Shown here: piece after piece, positions 3,378-16,544 of the stretch
Layout: the number at the start of each line of letters is the position of its first letter
Numbering within the stretch: position 1 is the first letter of the stretch
NCBI GenBank assembly: GCA_028701035.1
Contig: JAQVRO010000002.1
Location: 30,226-70,102 of the forward strand
From: Minisyncoccota bacterium
GTDB lineage: Bacteria > Patescibacteriota > Minisyncoccia > Minisyncoccales > CSSED10-335
Direction of reading: 5' to 3'
DNA length: 39,877 bases
The notes under the pieces: model-generated
What the model saw: the letters and a program-made list of their open reading frames with translations, nothing else
Told to the model about the DNA's origin: nothing
Database searches by the model: none
Position numbers and translations under genes: made by a program

Positions 3378-5054
3378 ATGAAAGAAGAAAAAAAATTAAA
3401 AATTATACCACTAGGAGGAATGGGCGAAATTGGCAAGAACATGACTCTTTTTGAGTATGATAAAAAAATACTAATTGTGGATATGGGTTTAAAGATGCCA
3501 AGTGAGAATATGCCTGGTGTTGACTATATTATTCCTAATGTATCCTATTTAGAAGGTAGAGAAGATGATATTGTTGCAGTTTTGTTTACTCATGGTCACT
3601 ATGATCATATTGGAGCAATACCATATATTATCGAGAAAATTGGTAATCCTAAAATGTTTGCCTCACCTTTAGCTAAGGGAATAATTATGAAAAGGCAAGA
3701 AGAATTTCCTAACAATGTTAAACTAGACATTACCGAAGTGAATCATGGATCTAAGATTAACCTTAATCCATTTAAGGTTGAGTTCTTTCATATGAATCAC
3801 AATATTATGCATAACCTCGGAATGTTTATTCAAACTCCAGTTGGCAATATTGTTCACACATCTGATTTTAAACTTGACTCAGATCCGGTTAACGAAAAAC
3901 CAAGTGATTTAAAAAAGCTAAAAGAGATTGGTGATCAAAGGATAGATTTATTAATGATTGATTCGACTGGAGCTGAGAGTCCGGGGCATTCATTATCGGA
4001 AAAAGTAATAATGGAGAATTTAGAAGAAATATTTATTCAATCTGAAGGCCGAATTATTGCTGCTACATTCTCTTCTTTAGTTAATAGGATTCAGCAAATG
4101 ATTGTATTATCTGAAAAATATGGTCGTAAGGTTGCTATTATCGGAAATGGTATGAAAACTAATGTTGAGATTTGCAGAAAATTAAAAATCGTTTCTATTA
4201 AGAAGGGAACATTGATTAAGCCAAAAGATGTTGCTGATTATCCCGACGAGAAGATTACTATTATTTGTACTGGAGCTCAAGGAGAAGATAGGGCTGCTTT
4301 AATGCGTATTGCTAACGGAGAACATCAGAGCATTCATTTCAAAAAAGGTGATTCGGTGGTATTTTCATCTTCCGTTATTCCGGGCAATGAGAGAATGGTT
4401 CAAGAATTAAAAGACGATATCTTAAGACAAGGGACAAAGGTTTATCATTACAAAATGATGGATATTCATGCTGGTGGTCATGCTTATCAAGAGGAGATCA
4501 AAGAAGTAATTAACCTAATTCGCCCCAAGAATATTATGCCAATTCATGGTCAATATTCTATGTTTGCTTCCTTGAAAAATATGGCTATAGATTCTCTAAA
4601 TTTTAAAGAAGAGAATGTTTTACTGGCTGAGAATGGAGATATAGTTTATCTTTCTTCGGGTCGTGGATCGGTAGAGCAAAGCAAGGTAGCCTCTAATTAT
4701 GTGATGGTTGATGGTTTGGGAGTCGGCGATGTTGGCGAAGTTGTCCTAAGAGACAGAAAAGCATTAGCCGAAGATGGTATGTTTGTTATAATTGTTGTTG
4801 TGGATAAACAAAAAGGGCAAGTAAAGGGTTCGCCGGATATAATATCTCGTGGATTTATATACTTAAGAGAATCCAAAACTATGCTTTTCCAGACAAGAAA
4901 AAAGACGATACAAATCGTCAACAAGTCTGCTGGTACTGGCGGGGCAGTAAACTGGGCTTATGTTAAGGATGAATTGAGGAACAAAATCGGCCAGTTCTTG
5001 TATGAGAAAACCGAAAGAAGACCAATGGTCCTTCCGGTTATTATCGAGGTTTAG
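3378..5054 (+). CDS. rnj: Ribonuclease J (metallo-beta-lactamase / beta-CASP).
   Basis: The 558 aa product has the HGHYDHIG motif. Its beta-CASP and C-terminal domain layout is typical of RNase J. Confidence 0.85.
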   Translation: MKEEKKLKIIPLGGMGEIGKNMTLFEYDKKILIVDMGLKMPSENMPGVDYIIPNVSYLEGREDDIVAVLFTHGHYDHIGAIPYIIEKIGNPKMFASPLAKGIIMKRQEEFPNNVKLDITEVNHGSKINLNPFKVEFFHMNHNIMHNLGMFIQTPVGNIVHTSDFKLDSDPVNEKPSDLKKLKEIGDQRIDLLMIDSTGAESPGHSLSEKVIMENLEEIFIQSEGRIIAATFSSLVNRIQQMIVLSEKYGRKVAIIGNGMKTNVEICRKLKIVSIKKGTLIKPKDVADYPDEKITIICTGAQGEDRAALMRIANGEHQSIHFKKGDSVVFSSSVIPGNERMVQELKDDILRQGTKVYHYKMMDIHAGGHAYQEEIKEVINLIRPKNIMPIHGQYSMFASLKNMAIDSLNFKEENVLLAENGDIVYLSSGRGSVEQSKVASNYVMVDGLGVGDVGEVVLRDRKALAEDGMFVIIVVVDKQKGQVKGSPDIISRGFIYLRESKTMLFQTRKKTIQIVNKSAGTGGAVNWAYVKDELRNKIGQFLYEKTERRPMVLPVIIEV

Positions 5055-7617: not shown

Positions 7618-8028
7618 TTGTTGACATTGGGAAAAAGAAATGGGTCGAGGTCTCGAGAAGTTAAACCTAATGGGAACAATGGTCATAATAATGGCAATGG
7701 TTTCTCAATCGGGACATGCCCTATATGTGGAAGGGATAATATCCGTCTAACGGCACACCATCTTAAAAAGAGAGCAGTATTTGGAGAGAATCAGTGCGTT
7801 TTCTATCTTTGTAGAGAATGCCACGATCTCTTAGAGGCTTATATTAGAACAATGGAGAATGCAATCTTAAGATTGGCTCCAACAGCTTATGTTAAGCTCA
7901 ACGATACTTTTATACAAAACTTAGGTTTTGTTACCGATGGTGATCTGATGAACATCTGCAAGGATTTCTTAGAGGAGGTGAATCCAGAAGAAATCCAAAT
8001 AATCTTCAAAAAAAGAGGGAAAAATTAA
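7618..8028 (+). CDS. HNH-type endonuclease-like zinc-finger protein with a non-ATG start.
   Basis: The HNH/His-Me finger pattern is CPICG...LTAHHL...LCRECHD. There is no in-frame ATG before the motif. TTG codons at 7618, 7621 and 7627 follow AAAGGAG (7611-7617), so the exact start is uncertain. Confidence 0.5.
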   Translation: MLTLGKRNGSRSREVKPNGNNGHNNGNGFSIGTCPICGRDNIRLTAHHLKKRAVFGENQCVFYLCRECHDLLEAYIRTMENAILRLAPTAYVKLNDTFIQNLGFVTDGDLMNICKDFLEEVNPEEIQIIFKKRGKN

Positions 8029-8108
8029 CCCTCTTTAAGCTCTTGCTAAAATGTGATTAATGTTATATTATTAAGTTAGTTAGTCGATTATTAATTTAAA
8101 ATAAAAAT

Positions 8109-8672
8109 ATGGATATAATATATATTGTTTTGGGATTTATTGTGGTATTAGCTTTAGTTGTTGTATTGATTTACAACAGTCTTGTAGTTTTAAGGAATAG
8201 AACCGACGAGGCATGGTCCGATATTGATGTCCAATTAAAAAGAAGATACGATCTTATTCCTAATTTAATAGAAACAGTAAAGGGATATGCAGCTCACGAA
8301 AAAAGCGTCTTTGAAAATGTTACTAAGGCAAGAACAGCAGCAATGTCTGCTGAGCAATTAGGCGATCCTAAGAAGATGGCCGAGAGTGAGAATATGCTTT
8401 CGGGAACATTAAAAACTCTTTTTGCTGTTTCTGAAAATTATCCTCAGCTAAAGGCATCTGACAATTTTATTGAGCTTCAAAGAGAATTAAGAGATACCGA
8501 AGACAAAATTCAAGCATCTAGAAGATTTTATAACTCTAATGTTAGAGATCTTAATATCAAAGTTCAAGTATTCCCTTCTAATATTATTGCTGGATCTCTT
8601 GGATTTACAAAAAGAGACTTCTTCGAAATAGAAGATCCAAAAGAAAAAGAGCCAGTAAAAGTTAGTTTTTAA
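8109..8672 (+). CDS. lemA: LemA family membrane protein.
   Basis: The 187 aa product has an N-terminal TM helix and LemA signature segments ([41 protein letters not shown]). Confidence 0.85.
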
Positions 8673-8678
8673 TTTTTT

Positions 8679-9566
8679 ATGGCAAATCTTTATACTCAAG
8701 TTGAATCAAATACCAGAAAGACTTGGGCTTATCTATTATTCTTCTTTGTTTTCATAATTAGTCTTGGATGGGTGATGTCCTACTTTCTAGAAACTCAAGC
8801 TATTCTTTGGGTGGCAGTTGTTTTTGCAATAATACTAAACATCGCTTCTTACTGGTATTCAGATAAGATAGTTTTAAGTATGGTTAAGGCAAGGCCAGTA
8901 AAAAAAGAAGACAACCCAGAGCTTTATCGCTTAGTAGAGAATTTATCCATTACTGCTGGATTACCTATGCCCAAGATATATATTATGAACGAAATGCAAC
9001 CAAATGCTTTTGCTACTGGTCGCGATCCGGAGCATGGAGTAATAGTAGTAACCGAAGGGTTATTAAATATCTTAGAAAAAGCAGAGCTAGAAGGAGTGTT
9101 GGCTCACGAATTAGCTCATATTGGCAATCGCGACATTTTACTATCCACAGTGGTTGTAGTATTAGTTGGTATGGTGGTAATTATGACAGATATGTTCTTT
9201 AGAATTGCTTTCTTTAGTGATGGAGATAACAAAAACAAAGGACCTATGATAATTATTGCTTTGATTTTGGCGATATTGGCACCACTTATGGCTCAATTAA
9301 TGAAGTTGGCGATATCTCGCAAAAGAGAGTTCTTAGCAGATTCTTCAGGAGCTTTACTTACAAGATATCCCGATGGACTTGCTCGGGCATTAGAGAAAAT
9401 ATCCAAAGACCCTCATCCGATGACTAAAGCTAGTAATGCCACAGCCCATATGTTCATATCCAATCCTTTTAGAGGAAAAGAAACTGCTAGCTGGCTAAGT
9501 AAAATGTTTATGACTCACCCTCCTGCCGAAGAGAGGATATCAAAATTAAAAGAAATGAGCCTATGA
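8679..9566 (+). CDS. htpX: Zinc metalloprotease HtpX (M48 family).
   Basis: It has the HELAHIGNRD (HExxH) motif, four TM segments and a C-terminal THPP...ERI motif. Confidence 0.9.
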   Translation: MANLYTQVESNTRKTWAYLLFFFVFIISLGWVMSYFLETQAILWVAVVFAIILNIASYWYSDKIVLSMVKARPVKKEDNPELYRLVENLSITAGLPMPKIYIMNEMQPNAFATGRDPEHGVIVVTEGLLNILEKAELEGVLAHELAHIGNRDILLSTVVVVLVGMVVIMTDMFFRIAFFSDGDNKNKGPMIIIALILAILAPLMAQLMKLAISRKREFLADSSGALLTRYPDGLARALEKISKDPHPMTKASNATAHMFISNPFRGKETASWLSKMFMTHPPAEERISKLKEMSL

Positions 9567-10096
9567 AACAATGTTTTTCTTGTAAGGAAAAGATGGAGCG
9601 AGCACTGCTATACAATGTAGAGGTGGATTATTGCCCTAAGTGTTTTGGTTTGTGGTTTGACAAAGATGAGCTTAGATTGGCCAAAGATAAGGCCGATGAA
9701 AATATTAAATGGCTTGATGTTGATTTATGGTCCGATGATTCTAAGTTTAAGATTGCTAAGGGCGGTAAGTTATGTCCAATAGACCGTCTTCCCTTGTATG
9801 AGGTAGAGTATGCCGATTCGGGGATTAAGGTAGATATCTGTATAATTTGTAATGGAGTATGGTTAGATAGAGGTGAGTTTAAGCAGATTATTAATTACTT
9901 AAAACAAAGAGGTGACTGGGAGATTTTAAATAATTATTACAAGAATCTTGCAGGAGAAGCCTTAGAGATATTTATTGGCCCCAAGACAATGCGAGAAGAG
10001 ATAGTAGATTTTTTAATAATCCTCAAGCTTTTTAATATAAAGTTTTTGGTAAGTCACCCTAAAATATCTCAGGCAATATCAATGTTGCCAAAATAG
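9563..10096 (+). CDS. Protein with two zf-TFIIB-like zinc ribbons.
   Basis: The two repeats are CFSCKEKM...YCPKCFGLWFDKDEL and CPIDRLPL...ICIICNGVWLDRGEF. Its start forms an ATGA overlap with htpX. Confidence 0.6.
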   Translation: MKQCFSCKEKMERALLYNVEVDYCPKCFGLWFDKDELRLAKDKADENIKWLDVDLWSDDSKFKIAKGGKLCPIDRLPLYEVEYADSGIKVDICIICNGVWLDRGEFKQIINYLKQRGDWEILNNYYKNLAGEALEIFIGPKTMREEIVDFLIILKLFNIKFLVSHPKISQAISMLPK

Positions 10097-10099
10097 TTT

Positions 10100-10187
10100 G
10101 GAGGGATCAGATAGTGGTTTATTCTAATGGCTTGGAAAGCCATGCTTTGTAAGAGGCCCGTGGGTTCGAATCCCACTCCCTCCGCCA
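10100..10187 (+). tRNA. tRNA-Ser (anticodon GGA), type II, with CCA encoded.
   Basis: The acceptor is GGAGGGA/TCCCTCC, the anticodon stem ATGGC/GCCAT with loop TTGGAAA, and the T arm GTGGG-TTCGAAT-CCCAC. It has a long variable arm and a terminal GCCA. Confidence 0.85.
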
Positions 10188-10200
10188 AATTGTACTTTTT

Positions 10201-10231
10201 GCAAAAACTCCGAGAAATCGGAGTTTTTTGC
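10201..10231 (+). terminator. Intrinsic terminator after tRNA-Ser.
   Basis: The hairpin AAAAACTCCGA-GAAA-TCGGAGTTTTT has a T run. Confidence 0.6.
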
Positions 10232-10269
10232 CTAGCGAGTTGGAAATTCTTTGTTTGACTAAATTGTGA

Positions 10270-10350
10270 ATAATTTATATACTAACTATTGATACAGTCA
10301 AAAAAATAGCGGACGCTCTTGGCGTTTCGATTGAGGATTTAATAAAATAA
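10270..10350 (+). pseudogene. 3' remnant of an XRE-family HTH (controller-protein-like) gene.
   Basis: The frame reads IIYILTIDTVKKIADALGVSIEDLIK*. This is the typical end of an XRE HTH domain. There is no start codon, and an in-frame TGA lies at 10267. Confidence 0.5.
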
Positions 10351-10354
10351 AACT

Positions 10355-11146
10355 ATGGCTAGACAAATTACAATTACAGCTGAATATTTCCGTCAATACA
10401 GACAAAAACTTGGTTTTTCAAACCAAGCAGATGTTAAAAACTTTTTTGGTGCGAAAGATATTACGCCGACCGTTGATTTGAATTATATTGGATTATTAAA
10501 TGAAAGACTTTATAACATCATTGATAAAATCAATGATGTCGTCGCCAAAGAAATAAAAATCGACGATTCTATTGCTTTCAAAAAAGAACATATTGACCGA
10601 ACTTTTGAAATCATGAAGGCAAATAATATTTTGCCGGTTTTAAATAATCAAGGCAGACGACCAGAACAGGTTTATTACTCATGGATGAGAGGTTATGTTT
10701 TATCAAATTATTTTTTGAAAGCACTTGGTTTAGTTTTTGAAGTTGATACTTCAAGTATAGATTTAATTGGCGACGACGATTTAAAGAATATAGAAACATT
10801 TAAAAGAACACCAAAAGCAGATTTAGAAATTAAATTAAACGGAAAAGAAAAAGTAAGAATTGAAATGCAGTCTGGTTTTACTGGAATAAATGACATAAAG
10901 CAACATAAAGTATTGGAAGCAAAACGAGTTTTTCGTGATTTGGGTTTTCACACTCTGGCAATTCATTTTGACTTATATAATGGTCAGGTTGCTTTTATTA
11001 AGCTAGATGAAATTGAGGACGATAGCGTTAATTGGATTACAAGACAACAAATGGAGGGACAAACAGTTTTCAATATTGATCAAAATTATTTTATTTGGAA
11101 GATTACAGAAAGCCCAGTTAAGTATAAGGAAATTAATTTTGATTAG
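10355..11146 (+). CDS. Hypothetical protein; candidate PD-(D/E)XK-like restriction endonuclease partner of the adjacent methyltransferase.
   Basis: The 263 aa product ends 8 nt upstream of the m5C MTase. A possible catalytic pattern is IGDDD...KADLEIK...VRIEMQSG (D...ExQ, as in a few type II enzymes). I recognise no family. Confidence 0.45.
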   Translation: MARQITITAEYFRQYRQKLGFSNQADVKNFFGAKDITPTVDLNYIGLLNERLYNIIDKINDVVAKEIKIDDSIAFKKEHIDRTFEIMKANNILPVLNNQGRRPEQVYYSWMRGYVLSNYFLKALGLVFEVDTSSIDLIGDDDLKNIETFKRTPKADLEIKLNGKEKVRIEMQSGFTGINDIKQHKVLEAKRVFRDLGFHTLAIHFDLYNGQVAFIKLDEIEDDSVNWITRQQMEGQTVFNIDQNYFIWKITESPVKYKEINFD

Positions 11147-11154
11147 ATTTTTTT

Positions 11155-12288
11155 ATGAGTAAAGCCAAAAAATTAAAAGTTATAGATTTGTTTTCTGGTG
11201 TGGGTGGTTTGAGTTATGGCTTCGCCCATGACGATAATTTTGAAATTGTCGCCGCTAATGAGATTTTGCCAAATATGGCAAAAGCATACTCATTGAATCA
11301 TCCAACAGCAAAAGTCTATGCGGAGGACATCAAAGATTTTAATGCAGAAAAAGTTGAAAAAGATTTAGGAATCAAGGCGAGCGAGATTGATATTATCGTC
11401 GGTGGACCGCCTTGTCAGGCTTATTCCACAGTTGGAAAAAGATTGATTGACGACCCACGAGGTAAATTATTTCAAGAATACTATCGTGTTTTAAAAGAAT
11501 TTAATCCAAAACTTTTTCTCTTTGAAAATGTTAAAGGTCTTTTATCAATGCAAGGTGGCGAATTATTAAAAACAATTATTTCACTTTTTGAATCTCTTGG
11601 ATATAAAGTTCAGTATAAACTTTTGAATGCCGCTGATTATGGTGCACCCCAGGTAAGAGAAAGGGTTGTAATTATTGGCTCAAAACTTAAAACTGATTTT
11701 GAATACCCAGAACCAACTCATTATAATCCAGAGGAAAAACCTGATTTGTTTAACAAAAAACTCAAACCATATTTAACACTTGAAGAAGCAATAAGTGATT
11801 TGCCTTTCATTAAATCAAATGAAGAAAGTTTTGAATATTCTTCTAAACCACAAAATGATTTTCAAAAGTTTATGCGTAAAAACGCACCGACAAAACTAAT
11901 GGATCATAATTCGCCAAACAACAATGAAAATTTGGTCAAAATAATGGAGCTATTGCCAGACGGAGGAACACCAGAAGATTTGCCAGAAGAATTACGCCCA
12001 ACATCAGGTTTTAAAAATACATATTGTCGTCTTTGGTGGAAGCGACCAGCAACAACTATAACAAGAAATCTAAGCACACCGTCATCATCTCGTTGTATTC
12101 ATCCAAAAGCACCTAGACCACTGACAACAAGAGAGGGTGCGAGAATTCAATGTTTTCCAGATGATTATAGATTTTTTGGTTCACGAGGTGATAGAAATTT
12201 ACAAATTGGAAATGCTGTTCCAACATTTTTATCAAACGCAGTAGCAAAAGCAATTTTGGAAAATTTTAAATCAGAAAACGCAATATGA
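11155..12288 (+). CDS. dcm: DNA (cytosine-5)-methyltransferase.
   Basis: All the canonical motifs are present: DLFSGVGGLSYGF (I), GGPPCQAYS (IV), ENVKGL (VI), QVRERV (VIII), TTREGARIQCFPDDY (IX) and GNAVP (X). Confidence 0.95.
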   Translation: MSKAKKLKVIDLFSGVGGLSYGFAHDDNFEIVAANEILPNMAKAYSLNHPTAKVYAEDIKDFNAEKVEKDLGIKASEIDIIVGGPPCQAYSTVGKRLIDDPRGKLFQEYYRVLKEFNPKLFLFENVKGLLSMQGGELLKTIISLFESLGYKVQYKLLNAADYGAPQVRERVVIIGSKLKTDFEYPEPTHYNPEEKPDLFNKKLKPYLTLEEAISDLPFIKSNEESFEYSSKPQNDFQKFMRKNAPTKLMDHNSPNNNENLVKIMELLPDGGTPEDLPEELRPTSGFKNTYCRLWWKRPATTITRNLSTPSSSRCIHPKAPRPLTTREGARIQCFPDDYRFFGSRGDRNLQIGNAVPTFLSNAVAKAILENFKSENAI

Positions 12289-12938
12289 GCAAAGCAATTC
12301 AAAAATTAAATAAACTTAAAAATCCTGAATCGTTTATGCAAATCAATACGATTAAGGGTTTTAAATATGTTGATAGGGCTGGTGAAATTGTGAATGCTTA
12401 TCATAAAAATAATTCTGCACCTCAATTTCAAATGGGGCTTAATGGATTGGTTATTGAGCAACCGAAAGATAAAATTGATGAGTTAAAAATTACTGCCCAA
12501 GTGATATGGGCAAAATTTAGCGAGATAGATTCGTTAGATTCCATCTCTACCCTTTTTGCAAAGGAAAGCGAAAATATTCTAAAAATATTGGAAGTTGAAA
12601 AAATAAGCCGAATTGGCTGGCGGAATTATTTTGTTCATGAATTTTTGAATAAAGAAAAACAAGACGAATATCTAAAAAAATTCACGGTAATCAAGGACAC
12701 TAAACCGACAGTCGTAAGGTTAGATATAAAAACAGGCAAAGATTTTAACGCGAATTTGATGCTTCAACCTGTGATTAAGAATGATGAGAATAAGACATCT
12801 GGAATTCTTTTTGATATTGATATTTTCCAAAACGGAGAATTTGAGCCAAAAGATATATCTAAATTATTAAGAGAATTTAGACAATATCTTGCCGATGAAA
12901 ATGGATTTTTGAATGTTGTAAATAACACTTTTGAATAA
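12285..12938 (+). CDS. Hypothetical protein (217 aa) translationally coupled to the methyltransferase.
   Basis: Its start forms an ATGA overlap with dcm. I am not confident of any family. The segment ISRIGWRNYF vaguely recalls the RxGLRY motif of TIGR04255-type uncharacterised proteins, from memory only. Confidence 0.6.
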   Translation: MSKAIQKLNKLKNPESFMQINTIKGFKYVDRAGEIVNAYHKNNSAPQFQMGLNGLVIEQPKDKIDELKITAQVIWAKFSEIDSLDSISTLFAKESENILKILEVEKISRIGWRNYFVHEFLNKEKQDEYLKKFTVIKDTKPTVVRLDIKTGKDFNANLMLQPVIKNDENKTSGILFDIDIFQNGEFEPKDISKLLREFRQYLADENGFLNVVNNTFE

Positions 12939-12939
12939 T

Positions 12940-13164
12940 ATGTGGACAGAACTTGTTAAAAAAATAGAATTACAATCGGTGCTAGTGTTATTTTTGACAC
13001 TTCTTTTTGGGTTTTTACTTTTGAATAAAGATAATAGCTTATCAAGTCCCGCTGGAATTTTAGGAAGTATTTCAATCGGAATGGGGCTTTTATATACATT
13101 TGGCTCATTTTTTTCAAATCAGATCAAACCAACGAAAATAAACAGAGAATCATTGATTTTATAA
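12940..13164 (+). CDS. Small two-TM membrane protein (74 aa from the ATG; a TTG at 12931 is an alternative start).
   Basis: The ATG lies 1 nt after the upstream stop. The two hydrophobic helices are VLVLFLTLLFGFLLL and ILGSISIGMGLLYTFGSFF. Confidence 0.45.
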   Translation: MWTELVKKIELQSVLVLFLTLLFGFLLLNKDNSLSSPAGILGSISIGMGLLYTFGSFFSNQIKPTKINRESLIL

Positions 13165-13312
13165 ATATAATAAAATAAATTGCCCCGCCGAGTTCAAATT
13201 AGTTTTCAGGATTTTCGTCTAAAAAAAACACAGTCAATTTATAATTTTATATCGTTAATATCGAAAAAGAAGAAAGGCAAATTATTAATAATTACTCAAA
13301 GTTGATAAAAAC

Positions 13313-15859
13313 ATGACCGAAAGCATTTATAATATAAATAGTTTTCAAGGCCTTTCTCAGAAGGAGGCAAAGAAAACTTTAATGGCTGACGGATTCAATG
13401 AATTACCTTCTCAAAAAAAGCAGAGTTGGTTTTCTATTTTAATAAGGGTTTTGTCTGAGCCGATGCTTATCTTGCTTCTTGCTGGTGGGGCAATTTATCT
13501 TGCGATGGGAGAGCCTAGGGATGCTCTAATGTTACTTTCTTTTGTGTTTGTAGTCATTGGCATAACTTTTTATCAAGAGAGAAAAACCGAGAAAACACTC
13601 GAAGCCCTAAGAGATCTATCTAGTCCTCGAGCCTTGGTTATTCGTGATGGCGAGCAAATAAGAATTGCTGGTCGCGAGGTAGTTAGAAATGACATTGTTA
13701 TTATCCAAGAAGGAGATAGAATTCCAGCCGATGCAGTTATTTTATCGTGCCAGAATCTTTTTGTGGATGAATCTCTTTTAACTGGGGAATCAATGCCGGT
13801 GAGAAAGGTGGAATGGGACGAAAAAATGAATAGTCAAAGACCGGGTGGAGACGACTTACCCTTCGTATATTCTGGCTCATTGGTTACAAGTGGGCGTGGT
13901 GTGGCTCGGGTTAATTATACTGGAATCAATACCGAAATTGGTAAAATCGGAAAAAGTCTAGAAGGAATCAAAGATGAAGACACTTTATTAAAAAAGGAAA
14001 CCGCAAAGATTGTGCGTGCAGTGGCAGTTATCGGACTTATTTTGTGTGCCTTGGTGGTAATAATTTACATCTTTACCAAGGGCGATGTTATCGGGGGGTT
14101 GCTATCCGGCCTTACTTTGAGCATGGCTATGCTTCCAGAAGAATTTCCTATTGTGCTTTTAATATTTTTAACACTAGGAGCTTGGAGAATCTCAAAAAAC
14201 AAAGTATTGACAAGGCGCTCAGATGCTATAGAAACTTTGGGTGCGGCAACTGTGCTTTGTGCAGACAAAACAGGTACCTTGACGATGAATAAAATGGAAT
14301 TGAGTAATCTCTATGTGGACGATTCTTTTTGTGAGTTGGATGACACTAAACCGGAAAAATTATCAGAAAAATTTAGAACTTTACTTGAGTGTGGGGTTCT
14401 AGCTAGTCAGAAAGACCCATTTGATCCGATTGAGAAAGAATTGAATAAAATGGGGGAGCTATACCTTAAAGATTTCACTAAAGATCATTTTGATTTAATA
14501 AAAGAGTATCCTCTTTCCAAAGAGCTCTTGGCCCTGTCTCATGCATGGCGGTTAAATAGTACAGAATTAGTTGTCGCCTCAAAGGGTGCTCCAGAGGCAA
14601 TATTAGATTTATGTCATGTCAATGAAAATCAAAGACAACAAATTCTGCAAAAAGTTCAAGAAATGTCGGACAAGGGTTTGCGAGTTTTGGGTGTTGCTAG
14701 AGCAAATTCTACTTTGGAGATATTGCCAGACAATCATCACGATTTCGACTTTGATTTTATTGGATTACTTGGATTTATTGATCCAATTAGAAAAACAGCT
14801 CCGGATGCAATTAAAGAGGCTTACGAGGCAGGCATGAGAGTAATAATGATAACCGGAGATTATCCCGGCACTGCTCAATTTATTGCTGAAAAAATTGGTA
14901 TCAAAAACACCGAACAGTATTTGACTGGCGAAGACTTGGAAAAATTAAGTCAGTTTGAGCTTCAAGAAAAAATTAAAACTGTTAATATCTTTGCTAGAGT
15001 TATTCCAGAGCAGAAATTATTAATCGTTAAAGCCCTAAAAGCTAATAACGAAGTTGTGGCTATGACAGGTGATGGTGTTAATGATGCACCAGCCCTAAAG
15101 TCTGCTCATATTGGTGTGGCTATGGGAGAGAGGGGAACTGATGTGGCTAGAGAAGCTTCATCGTTAGTGTTGTTAAATGATGATTTTTCATCAATTGTAG
15201 TGGCGGTGCGTTTAGGGCGGAGGATTTATGGGAATTTAAAAAGAGCTATGGGCTATATCTTATCTGTTCATATACCGATTGCCGGGATGTCTATATTACC
15301 ATTAGTTTTCAATATGCCAGCAATGTTGCTTCCAGCACACATTGCTTTCTTGGAGCTGATTATTGATCCGGCTTGCTCAACTGTTTTTGAGTCTGAAAAA
15401 GAAGACGATGATATTATGAAAAAACCGCCTAGGGATATAGATCAACCGATGTTTAACTTTAAAACCGTATTGTTGAGTCTTCTACAGGGTTTAGGTGTTT
15501 TGATAGCAACATTTGTTTTGTTTTTGTTTGTTAGCAACTCCGGTAAAAGTGAAGCCGAAGTTCGTTCTTTTGTTTTCGTTTCGCTTGTCTTGGCAAACTT
15601 AATGCTCATTGTTATTAACTTATCTTGGAGTAAAAATATTTACCAAATAATTGTGTCTGCTAATAAAGTCTTGTTTGCGGTTATCATTGGAGCAATGTTA
15701 TCTTTGTTTGTAGTTTTGTATGTGCCATTCTTTGCCGATCTGTTTCGTCTTGCCCCTCTTGGCATAAAAGATTTTTTGTGGATTGGCCTAGCTGTTCTTG
15801 TTGGTTTGGCATGGTTCGAAGTATTGAAATTATTAAGAAATGAAAATACCAAAAATTAA
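13313..15859 (+). CDS. Cation-transporting P-type ATPase (P2/Ca2+-type-like).
   Basis: The 848 aa product has TGES, CADKTGTLT (phospho-Asp), MITGDYPGTA and TGDGVNDAPAL, with about 10 TM segments. Confidence 0.9.
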   Translation: MTESIYNINSFQGLSQKEAKKTLMADGFNELPSQKKQSWFSILIRVLSEPMLILLLAGGAIYLAMGEPRDALMLLSFVFVVIGITFYQERKTEKTLEALRDLSSPRALVIRDGEQIRIAGREVVRNDIVIIQEGDRIPADAVILSCQNLFVDESLLTGESMPVRKVEWDEKMNSQRPGGDDLPFVYSGSLVTSGRGVARVNYTGINTEIGKIGKSLEGIKDEDTLLKKETAKIVRAVAVIGLILCALVVIIYIFTKGDVIGGLLSGLTLSMAMLPEEFPIVLLIFLTLGAWRISKNKVLTRRSDAIETLGAATVLCADKTGTLTMNKMELSNLYVDDSFCELDDTKPEKLSEKFRTLLECGVLASQKDPFDPIEKELNKMGELYLKDFTKDHFDLIKEYPLSKELLALSHAWRLNSTELVVASKGAPEAILDLCHVNENQRQQILQKVQEMSDKGLRVLGVARANSTLEILPDNHHDFDFDFIGLLGFIDPIRKTAPDAIKEAYEAGMRVIMITGDYPGTAQFIAEKIGIKNTEQYLTGEDLEKLSQFELQEKIKTVNIFARVIPEQKLLIVKALKANNEVVAMTGDGVNDAPALKSAHIGVAMGERGTDVAREASSLVLLNDDFSSIVVAVRLGRRIYGNLKRAMGYILSVHIPIAGMSILPLVFNMPAMLLPAHIAFLELIIDPACSTVFESEKEDDDIMKKPPRDIDQPMFNFKTVLLSLLQGLGVLIATFVLFLFVSNSGKSEAEVRSFVFVSLVLANLMLIVINLSWSKNIYQIIVSANKVLFAVIIGAMLSLFVVLYVPFFADLFRLAPLGIKDFLWIGLAVLVGLAWFEVLKLLRNENTKN

Positions 15860-16544
15860 ATTTGAATTTAACCAAGAGCTTGATTTTAATCTTGCCTGGG
15901 AGTTTTATAATAATCCAAACCAAGCAGGAGCTAATTTTTGGAATAATGGGGCATTAAAGCATCATAGCGGATTAAAAGAGATGGAGATTGTTAGTAAAAA
16001 GAGAGATTTTTTACTTAACTATATTAACTGTTATTACAAGCAACAAAAGAATAGGATTGAGAAAAGGAAAAAAGAGATTGAGGTTCTGTACGATAAGAAG
16101 CATAGTCAATTCTTTGACGAGATTGGTAAAATATTCAAAGACTATCCATGGCCAAAAGGGAAATACATTGCATACTTATCAATATTTGATTTTTGTCCAA
16201 GATTTTTAAATGATAAAACATTTTTTGTTTTTGTAGATGATAACGATCAAAATATGATTTTTACTATTTCTCACGAAATGCTTCATTTCATATTCTACGA
16301 TTATTGTTTAGCAAAACATTTTGACATATTCAAAAAACAAGATACGGAAAGTGGCCCCTTCTGGGAAATAGCTGAAATATTTAATGTTGTTGTGCAACAA
16401 ACCCCTGGCTTTACCGCATTGCATGGTAAGATTAATAATGGTTATCCAGATCTTGAGCCAAAGATAAAAAGCGCTAAGGATTTGTGGACAGGAGATATTG
16501 ATAGCTGGATTAAGTCTTTTGATTTATTATCAATTAAAGAATAA
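15840..16544 (+). CDS. Hypothetical protein with an HExxH motif (putative metallopeptidase-like).
   Basis: The 234 aa product has ISHEMLHF. Its start overlaps the ATPase 3' end by 20 nt. Confidence 0.5.
   Translation: MKIPKIKFEFNQELDFNLAWEFYNNPNQAGANFWNNGALKHHSGLKEMEIVSKKRDFLLNYINCYYKQQKNRIEKRKKEIEVLYDKKHSQFFDEIGKIFKDYPWPKGKYIAYLSIFDFCPRFLNDKTFFVFVDDNDQNMIFTISHEMLHFIFYDYCLAKHFDIFKKQDTESGPFWEIAEIFNVVVQQTPGFTALHGKINNGYPDLEPKIKSAKDLWTGDIDSWIKSFDLLSIKE

Follow-up and report, generated by a model that had tools for sequence, protein, structure and literature searches.

Restriction–modification (R-M) systems are the commonest defense of prokaryotes, and a few of them are known to harbor embedded second-line genes (PrrC, Ronin), each bound to one R-M type. 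PrrC and RloC are encoded by an accessory gene inside a type I R-M operon and provide a fallback upon inhibition of restriction (PMC12707154; PMC3710099). In Ronin (RonA and HsdMS, Escherichia coli ECOR55), a small membrane protein kills the cell, is silenced by a soluble partner, and is triggered by anti-restriction proteins; RonA comprises 61 amino acids (aa) with one predicted transmembrane (TM) helix, and the silencer is the HsdMS of a nuclease-less type I remnant (bioRxiv 10.1101/2023.04.06.535777). PARIS, together with PrrC and Ronin, is a precedent for guardians of R-M (PMC12707154; bioRxiv 10.1101/2023.04.06.535777). The present study deals with a stretch of 39,877 nucleotides (nt) from a Minisyncoccota genome (contig JAQVRO010000002.1), in which an R-M system is followed by two extra genes encoding the 217-aa protein X217 and a small membrane protein, hereafter the companion pair. 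The whole stretch is referred to as the window, all coordinates are window positions, and comparison loci fetched for the analysis are designated Lnnn. The four genes are the following:

10355..11146, + strand: putative type II restriction endonuclease (REase), 263 aa (homolog names, adjacency to the methyltransferase)
11155..12288, + strand: C5 cytosine DNA methyltransferase (MTase), 377 aa (Pfam, NCBIfam, PADLOC, and PDB matches)
12285..12938, + strand: X217, 217-aa soluble protein, R-M-associated and distantly TIGR04255-like (AlphaFold (AF2), Foldseek, homolog contexts)
12940..13164 (ATG, 74 aa) or from the TTG at 12931 (77 aa), + strand: truncated two-TM membrane protein gene (alignment with 14 homologs, hydropathy)

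The open reading frames (ORFs) are separated by 8 nt, an ATGA overlap, and 1 nt, in this order. The dense packing of four same-strand genes behind tRNA-Ser(GGA) and a terminator, described in an initial annotation made from the letters alone, was confirmed by the ORF coordinates, ARAGORN, Rfam, and direct reading of the terminator-like hairpin. As in Ronin, the gene of a small membrane protein is closely linked to R-M genes. In contrast to RonA, the membrane protein of the companion pair is about 121 aa long, has two TM helices followed by a tail, and is accompanied by a dedicated 217-aa partner; the pair is hosted by complete systems of types I, II, and III with nucleases (REases, Res, HsdR). 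Homology to Ronin was not detected, the RonA sequence itself not being at hand for alignment. Ronin is described by HsdM and HsdS without HsdR and by a toxin of about 60 aa with a single TM helix, a description that sets the companion pair apart. With PrrC and RloC, it shares the location of an accessory gene within an R-M operon; however, PrrC is a single tRNA-cleaving protein with ABC-ATPase and HEPN domains, whereas the predicted effector of the companion pair is a membrane protein, and Pfam revealed no ATPase or HEPN domain in X217, the membrane protein, or 40 distant relatives. The extra genes had not been recognized as part of a described system in the initial annotation, and neither PADLOC nor Pfam or PHROGs contained a matching defense component. 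PADLOC-DB v2.0.0 gave no component match for the companion proteins of the window (E ≤ 1) or for five X217 homologs, and no description of the pair was found in the literature on TATA-binding protein (TBP)-like proteins with R-M, on insertions between mod and res, or in defense surveys of the Candidate Phyla Radiation (CPR). The companion pair is thus without relatives among the protein families of the defense databases queried, which extend no further than 2023, and conceptually it falls within the known class of R-M-embedded accessory modules.

Genomic context of the companion pair

The linkage of the companion pair was analyzed in 96 loci with 77 distinct X217 sequences obtained from genome and metagenome scans. 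A homolog of the membrane protein is encoded directly downstream of X217 in 48 of the 57 non-redundant loci with enough sequence, and the loci lacking it are mostly decayed copies or show contig problems. The two families are alike in size, with 154 clusters for X217 (90% identity, 5.8 billion proteins) and 122 clusters on the same contigs for the membrane protein, which is uniformly about 117–134 aa long. For the detection of R-M genes, Pfam-verified MTases and Res subunits were used as seeds in iterative local searches, and unclassified neighbors were additionally checked against Pfam. Of the 51 non-redundant loci whose upstream sequence extends over 1.5 kb or more, 35 have a recognizable R-M component no further than three genes from X217, compared with none of 395 control genes (Fisher's exact p = 5e-40). 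The control, processed by the same procedure, consisted of the flanks of the window and of 426 kb of Patescibacteria DNA that had been retrieved on account of an unrelated gene. At a further four loci, a helix-turn-helix (HTH) gene and an unclassified ORF lie directly upstream of the pair, a layout that looks like a controller and an uncharacterized REase.

The R-M systems hosting the pair belong to all three classical types:

Type II hosts: REases MutH-like, EcoO109I, MvaI/BcnI, TdeIII, HincII, NgoPII, and the family of the window; MTases 5-methylcytosine (m5C), N6_N4, D12, and Eco57I-like
Type I hosts: HsdR with an HsdM-S fusion (L112); hsdMSR (L122); HsdS (L124)
Type III hosts, pair between mod and res: L012, L014, L015, L019, L020, L116, L121, L125

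At least seven unrelated type II endonucleases are thus represented. The distance from X217 to the upstream same-strand gene is mostly −35 to +21 nt, and the pair either closes a type I or type II operon at its 3′ end or, in type III, separates mod from res. Average-linkage clustering of X217 resulted in a large cluster (≥48% identity), all classifiable members of which are type II, in several separate clades associated with type III, and in one clade associated with type I; judged by this clustering, the X217 subfamilies follow the R-M type. The pair is found in many Patescibacteria lineages and in metagenome-assembled genomes (MAGs) labeled Gamma- and Deltaproteobacteria, Bdellovibrionales, Legionellales, Gastranaerophilales, and Methanoperedens.

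An adjacency that merely reflects chance clustering in defense islands, with no functional link, is scarcely credible. Defense genes do cluster in islands, and 16 of the 51 X217 loci have no recognizable R-M gene within three genes. This explanation is opposed by the difference between X217 and control genes given above, the operonic spacing, the fixed position 3′ of or within the operon, and the match of subfamilies to R-M type. Homologs of the 217-aa and membrane protein genes, whose co-occurrence with other defense genes the initial annotation had left for comparison, are located almost only beside or inside R-M operons, and their presence alongside types I, II, and III shows that they are not subunits of a single R-M type. 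Taken over these genomic contexts, the pair was shown to be conserved as a unit, operonically coupled to R-M, and moving independently of any given R-M system. In L005 (2799-3038), L079, and L101, the R-M genes are separated from the 217-aa gene by an inserted gene for a 79-aa HARE-HTH protein (Pfam E 4e-17), so that the pair can have a third small companion.

Two modules beside tRNA-Ser

In the window, the homology to other loci at the DNA level is divided into two blocks:

10330..12270, + strand: R-M module, 83% nucleotide identity to L023 7975-9916, where the similarity ends (BLASTN)
12282..13128, + strand: companion-pair module (BLASTN against the fetched loci); 13128 is a truncation or recombination joint

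The companion block matches more than 40 loci in BLASTN, and all alignments begin at 12281-12285 and end at 13124-13128. The nucleotide identity is 97% to L133-L140, in which the pair follows a controller protein (HTH), an NgoPII-family REase, and a different m5C MTase, and 80–93% to more than 20 other loci; in L025 (85%), the pair is preceded by an N6_N4 MTase, a 286-aa ORF, and a D12-class MTase. X217 and membrane protein copies with 92–98% protein identity thus accompany unrelated R-M systems (L133-L140, L025). The REase and MTase pair, in turn, occurs without the companion pair in L023 and L024. In L023 (6936-11046), a tyrosine integrase is followed by the same REase and MTase and then by PDC-M50A and a ThsB-like TIR protein instead of the 217-aa gene. 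The presence of this TIR-bearing candidate pair in the same 3′ slot supports the view of the slot as a dock for accessory defense modules. The PADLOC scores of the L023 accessory pair are E 4e-46 for PDC-M50A and E 6e-81 for the ThsB-like TIR protein; the next gene, on the opposite strand, is Zot-like.

In locus L063, all four genes recur in identical order, with 89% identity across both modules. Since the two halves of the window region have different closest relatives (97% vs 89%), a recent exchange at the start codon of the 217-aa gene is the simplest explanation. According to these alignments, the four genes represent two independently moving modules with the junction at the 217-aa start codon. 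The initial annotation had suggested an R-M-linked or hybrid module; the extra genes are R-M-linked, but the four genes do not constitute one cassette. That all of them form one obligate four-component hybrid system is very improbable. The tight packing in the window and the arrangement in L063 would fit such a system, but it is contradicted by the comparative data, namely by the R-M pair without companion genes in L023 and L024, the companion pair in at least 10 other R-M architectures, and the junction at the X217 ATG between halves with differing closest relatives.

The loci share no sequence upstream of the ATG of the 217-aa gene, and the companion unit therefore lacks a conserved promoter or leader. 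The full-length membrane protein (about 121 aa) consists of two hydrophobic helices, a short loop, and a charged tail of about 60 residues with the conserved sequence ESYKDVIxEYK...TLRxSHK. The small two-TM protein noted in the initial annotation does retain both helices, but its gene is truncated at the 3′ end, and the conserved charged tail is missing. All alignments of this gene break off at 13128, after ...FFSNQIK (codon ~66); beyond this point, unrelated sequence reaching the ATPase promoter region stands in for the final ~57 codons and for the entire tail encoded within them. With 77 aa, the product is the shortest of 48 copies, the other 47 ranging from 108 to 134 aa, and the nearest relatives (97% identity) keep the full 121-aa gene. 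As the membrane gene is truncated, the companion module is probably defective here, and the pair in the window is, from its gene structure, most likely a decaying, non-functional copy. It is possible that position 13128 is an assembly joint. The 217-aa gene is frameshifted or fragmented in L021 (6001-6562), L131 (5001-5562), L022 (6001-6325), L016 (513-782), L017 (6196-6507), L117, and L118, behind TdeIII-type and other systems, and in the type III loci L013, L110, and L111, the membrane protein gene has been lost between X217 and res, leaving a gap of 265 bp. The many decayed copies suggest frequent loss, as for a costly or dispensable module.

Such decay, the shuffling of the pair among R-M systems, and a homology that begins at the ATG without conserved upstream sequence would also be expected of a selfish toxin–antidote-like hitchhiker that uses mobile, addictive R-M operons as vehicle and source of transcription and stabilizes itself and the island without contributing to phage defense. 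A small membrane protein with a soluble partner resembles, in our own assessment, type V/VI-like toxin–antidote pairs. However, hitchhiking alone does not readily explain why clades correspond to R-M type or why the pair is inserted between mod and res, annotated collections of 72,556 plasmids and 50,697 phage genomes contain no X217, and the toxin gene does not precede the antitoxin gene in the usual order. We therefore consider a selfish pair unlikely.

The left edge of the region comprises four further features:

10100..10187, + strand: tRNA-Ser(GGA), left anchor of the variable slot (ARAGORN; Rfam RF00005, 51.6 bits)
~10203..10229, + strand: hairpin CTCCGA-GAAA-TCGGAG between an A-run and a T-run, terminator-like, after the tRNA (direct reading)
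10255..10283, + strand: promoter-like TTGACT-17-TATACT, 10/12 (consensus scan; a match only, with a regional count not above that of shuffled sequences)
10270..10350, + strand: 3′ remnant of a controller (C) protein/HTH_3 gene, ~24 codons (alignment to the L133 HTH_3 protein)

The hairpin was not listed by the pattern scan, probably because the A/T runs lengthen the stem; it is retained in L061. The C-gene remnant encodes ...LTIDTVKKIADALGVSIEDLIK* and is 73% identical to the C-terminus of the intact 64-aa HTH_3 controller of L133 (assigned by Pfam), which substantiates the broken HTH gene reported earlier at the tRNA-proximal edge. The remnant is also present in L061, and its 3′ end also in L023. 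The region 10270-12288 resembles an ordinary type II R-M system with controller (L133, C-NgoPII-m5C) in that the C-gene remnant, REase, and m5C MTase share one orientation; unlike such a system, its C gene is cut to ~24 codons, and its REase family has neither a curated model nor a solved structure.

The sister contig L061 is ~97% identical to the window across lemA, htpX, the zinc-ribbon gene, the tRNA, the hairpin, the promoter-like site, and the C-gene remnant. It departs from the window at the exact ATG of the REase gene (10355; L061:2568-2939) and then encodes MNNKLNLTDNEKRDIIKYLESGKSLPEKYRFLLF..., an N-terminus of the type typical of the type III Mod proteins in L013 and L014. The Mod-like gene at the REase start codon indicates that the slot by tRNA-Ser is polymorphic for R-M content among close strains. 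Comparison of relatives at this locus, as envisaged in the initial annotation, thus revealed a content that differs between strains, and the alignments characterize the tRNA-Ser slot as a strain-variable R-M hot spot. The L061 contig stops before any downstream 217-aa and membrane protein gene pair or res gene could show. The contigs of the closest species-level relatives, L028 (ends at 4211) and L029 (ends at 4282), terminate within or just past tRNA-Ser, which fits strain heterogeneity in the slot 3′ of the tRNA that breaks the assembly. An empty site at tRNA-Ser was not found, the contigs of these two closest genomes stopping at the tRNA. In farther Staskawiczbacteria-like genomes, the gene order is rearranged with no ATPase nearby, and exact look-ups of the ATPase and X217 gave no match. 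Within 8000-16000, no integrase was detected, and within 9900-13600, no att-like or tRNA-derived direct repeats. The region is best explained as a composite defense islet at a tRNA-Ser hot spot of a Patescibacteria (CPR) genome.

The GC content is 0.28–0.36 within the region and 0.36–0.41 in the flanks. The flanks had been regarded as core genes, and this assignment was retained: LemA, an M48 peptidase (HtpX-like), and a zinc-ribbon protein (Pfam) are encoded on the left, and an 848-aa protein bearing the P-type ATPase motif CADKTGTLT on the right. Just 5′ of the lemA-htpX cluster, a 136-aa ORF (7618-8028, + strand) contains CxxC...HH...CxxCH with weak HNH and zinc-ribbon Pfam matches (E 0.006-0.5) and may encode a small HNH nuclease. 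A 234-aa ORF (15840-16544, + strand), which shares 20 nt with the end of the ATPase gene, has a metalloprotease-like HEMLH (HExxH) motif and no Pfam family.

The encoded proteins

An exhaustive profile search in 1.84 billion representatives retrieved 251 X217 clusters at 50% identity, nearly all of them single-domain proteins of 205–240 aa. The conserved motifs are NPESFxQ, GFKYxDxAGE, RxGWRNYF, and LFDxD, and Q19, D30, W75, R109, R113, D177, and D179 are invariant even in the most distant members. The AF2 model, calculated from an alignment of 37 sequences, reached a predicted local distance difference test (pLDDT) value of 90.2 and a predicted TM-score (pTM) of 0.85. According to DSSP, its elements are arranged as two tandem S1-H1-S2-S3-S4-S5-H2 units, which is the topology of the TBP domain. 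The top Foldseek hits in the PDB were the Trypanosoma brucei S-adenosylmethionine decarboxylase (AdoMetDC)/prozyme and TBP chains (probability 0.97–1.0, TM-scores 0.26–0.45); among viral models, an unnamed 202-aa protein scored best (TM-score 0.56–0.60), followed by TBP-like proteins of giant viruses. The predicted structure therefore assigns a TBP-like fold to X217, with the similarity confined to the fold level. The order of secondary structure elements, in two tandem repeats, is the same as in TBP; in contrast, X217 lacks sequence similarity to TBP, and its conserved residues are mixed acidic and basic, unlike the DNA saddle of TBP. No internal sequence repeat was detected (hhalign probability of 0.3 between the halves).

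X217 gave no usable match in Pfam, PADLOC, PHROGs, or the PDB sequences. NCBIfam TIGR04255, a "sporadically distributed" family to which no function is assigned, was weakly matched by five of 37 close and six of 40 distant relatives (best E 1e-5), whereas X217 of the window showed no match at E ≤ 10, short of the curated cut-off. These weak matches in a minority of relatives make it probable that X217 is a divergent branch of that superfamily. In the library searched, no paper mentioning TIGR04255 was found. Two further leads were discarded. Matches to acyl carrier proteins (E 0.005-0.2, residues 55-109) are centered on "DSLD" and fall on predicted β-strands, which is incompatible with the helix bundle of these proteins. 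The invariant serine of "NPES" was considered as an AdoMetDC-like pyruvoyl self-cleavage site, but the preceding residue varies and the serine lies inside a predicted strand. The membrane protein of the window matched neither PADLOC-DB v2.0.0 (E ≤ 1) nor Pfam; one homolog gave a weak match to a PADLOC "2TM effector" (E 0.0026).

A TBP-like fold can bind nucleic acid, with the N-domain of RNase HIII as a precedent (cited in PMC3710099). The pair might thus help restriction itself, either by holding or positioning incoming DNA or the R-M machinery close to the membrane or by tuning restriction activity (establishment, restriction alleviation). This would account for the embedding in the operon and the co-adaptation to R-M type, and it is in line with the location between mod and res in type III, the coupling to the last gene in types I and II, and the X217 clades that follow the R-M type. 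On the other hand, the same R-M pair occurs without a companion in L023, a specific protein contact is unlikely given 92–98% identical X217 copies alongside unrelated enzymes, and Pfam and NCBIfam revealed no HTH or known regulatory domain in X217. A direct role in restriction is therefore improbable in our estimation.

The R-M genes preceding the pair appear intact. The Dcm-type methyltransferase recognized in the initial annotation proved to be full-length (Pfam DNA_methylase 1e-78, 323 of 324 model positions; TIGR00675 6e-71; PADLOC MTase_II 1e-108). Its translation contains the PCQ and ENV motifs, and M.HaeIII is the closest solved relative (1e-42, PDB). The 377-aa protein is a complete C5-cytosine methyltransferase, the MTase of a type II R-M system. 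The 263-aa protein has 1193 homologs, nearly all of them 263 aa long and mostly from Patescibacteria; several are labeled "restriction endonuclease" by NCBI. Wherever the context is visible (window, L023, L024, L063), an m5C MTase gene adjoins its gene. No match was obtained in Pfam, NCBIfam, PADLOC, PHROGs, or the PDB sequences, including a profile search, and the protein is absent from the annotated plasmid collection. In an alignment drawn from the closest 120 of the 1193 homologs, D156, E170, and Q172 are invariant across 42 homologs, and strands are predicted in a suitable region. The AF2 model is poor (pLDDT 61 overall, <50 beyond residue 150, the catalytic half), and Foldseek returned nothing at E < 1 with this model of a low-confidence catalytic half (pLDDT < 50). 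A type II REase is the probable and best reading of the 263-aa protein. The D...ExQ pattern noted in the initial annotation would be compatible with the PD-(D/E)XK superfamily, but we do not adopt this assignment. Judged by its two genes, this R-M pair looks intact and is likely an active m5C system; it is a new representative of a known type of system with an uncharacterized REase family.

Proposed role of the companion pair

For the companion pair, we propose a role as a second-layer guardian or abortive-infection module, a tentative reading to which we assign a probability of roughly 0.4 and which is derived from position, fold, and analogy. The analogy to PrrC, PARIS, and especially Ronin argues for a guardian, and the partner of X217 shows effector-like traits, that is, two TM helices, a charged tail, and the single weak "2TM effector" match. 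The pair would be a promoter-less R-M satellite that is translationally coupled to the last R-M gene, its membrane protein forming a two-TM hairpin with the charged tail in the cytoplasm. X217 would act as a cytoplasmic sensor and silencer, with the invariant residues Q19, D30, W75, R109, R113, D177, and D179 forming a binding site for a ligand or nucleic acid, and would keep the membrane protein inactive via its charged tail. If restriction failed or were inhibited during infection, the membrane protein would be released, and the resulting membrane damage would stop phage production.

Several observations weigh against a guardian. In 16 of the 51 loci, an R-M gene was not recognizable within three genes, decayed companion copies are common, and the TM-scores of X217 to TBP chains are modest (0.37–0.45). 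With an isoelectric point (pI) of 5.8–9.0, X217 is near-neutral and not an obvious DNA binder. DNA-mimic anti-restriction proteins are not usually aimed at type II REases, and these enzymes being unusual targets, a common signal for a guardian of types I, II, and III is hard to name. In addition, near-identical X217 copies with unrelated type II enzymes argue against a direct recognition of R-M proteins.

One conceivable signal would be something common to all R-M classes. X217 and the membrane protein could constitute a general guardian that senses the pool of the cofactor S-adenosylmethionine (SAM), which is attacked by phage SAM lyases, or a by-product of restriction, and then releases a membrane-damaging effector. 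A SAM-dependent methyltransferase is the sole component common to all hosts, AdoMetDC is among the structural neighbors of X217, and the invariant Asp/Arg/Gln/Trp cluster resembles a small-molecule site more than a DNA saddle. We rate this version as distinctly unlikely. A review of R-M from 2025 lists the "sensing of cofactor degradation" as a layer as yet without experimental example (PMC12707154); a guardian of the SAM pool, if true, would be that layer.

Despite having no relatives among described defense proteins, the companion pair is joined to R-M systems of types I, II, and III, and its hosts span Patescibacteria, Proteobacteria, Bdellovibrionota, Melainabacteria-like lineages, and an archaeal MAG. 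If it acts as a guardian or as a helper of restriction, it would represent a new accessory layer of restriction, provide the first functional context for the TIGR04255-like superfamily, and show that such modules spread via exact start-codon swaps at the 3′ ends of operons. For the genome from which the window originates, the implications are more modest: it carries a likely active m5C R-M system and a degraded companion module in a slot next to tRNA-Ser, the R-M content of which varies between strains.

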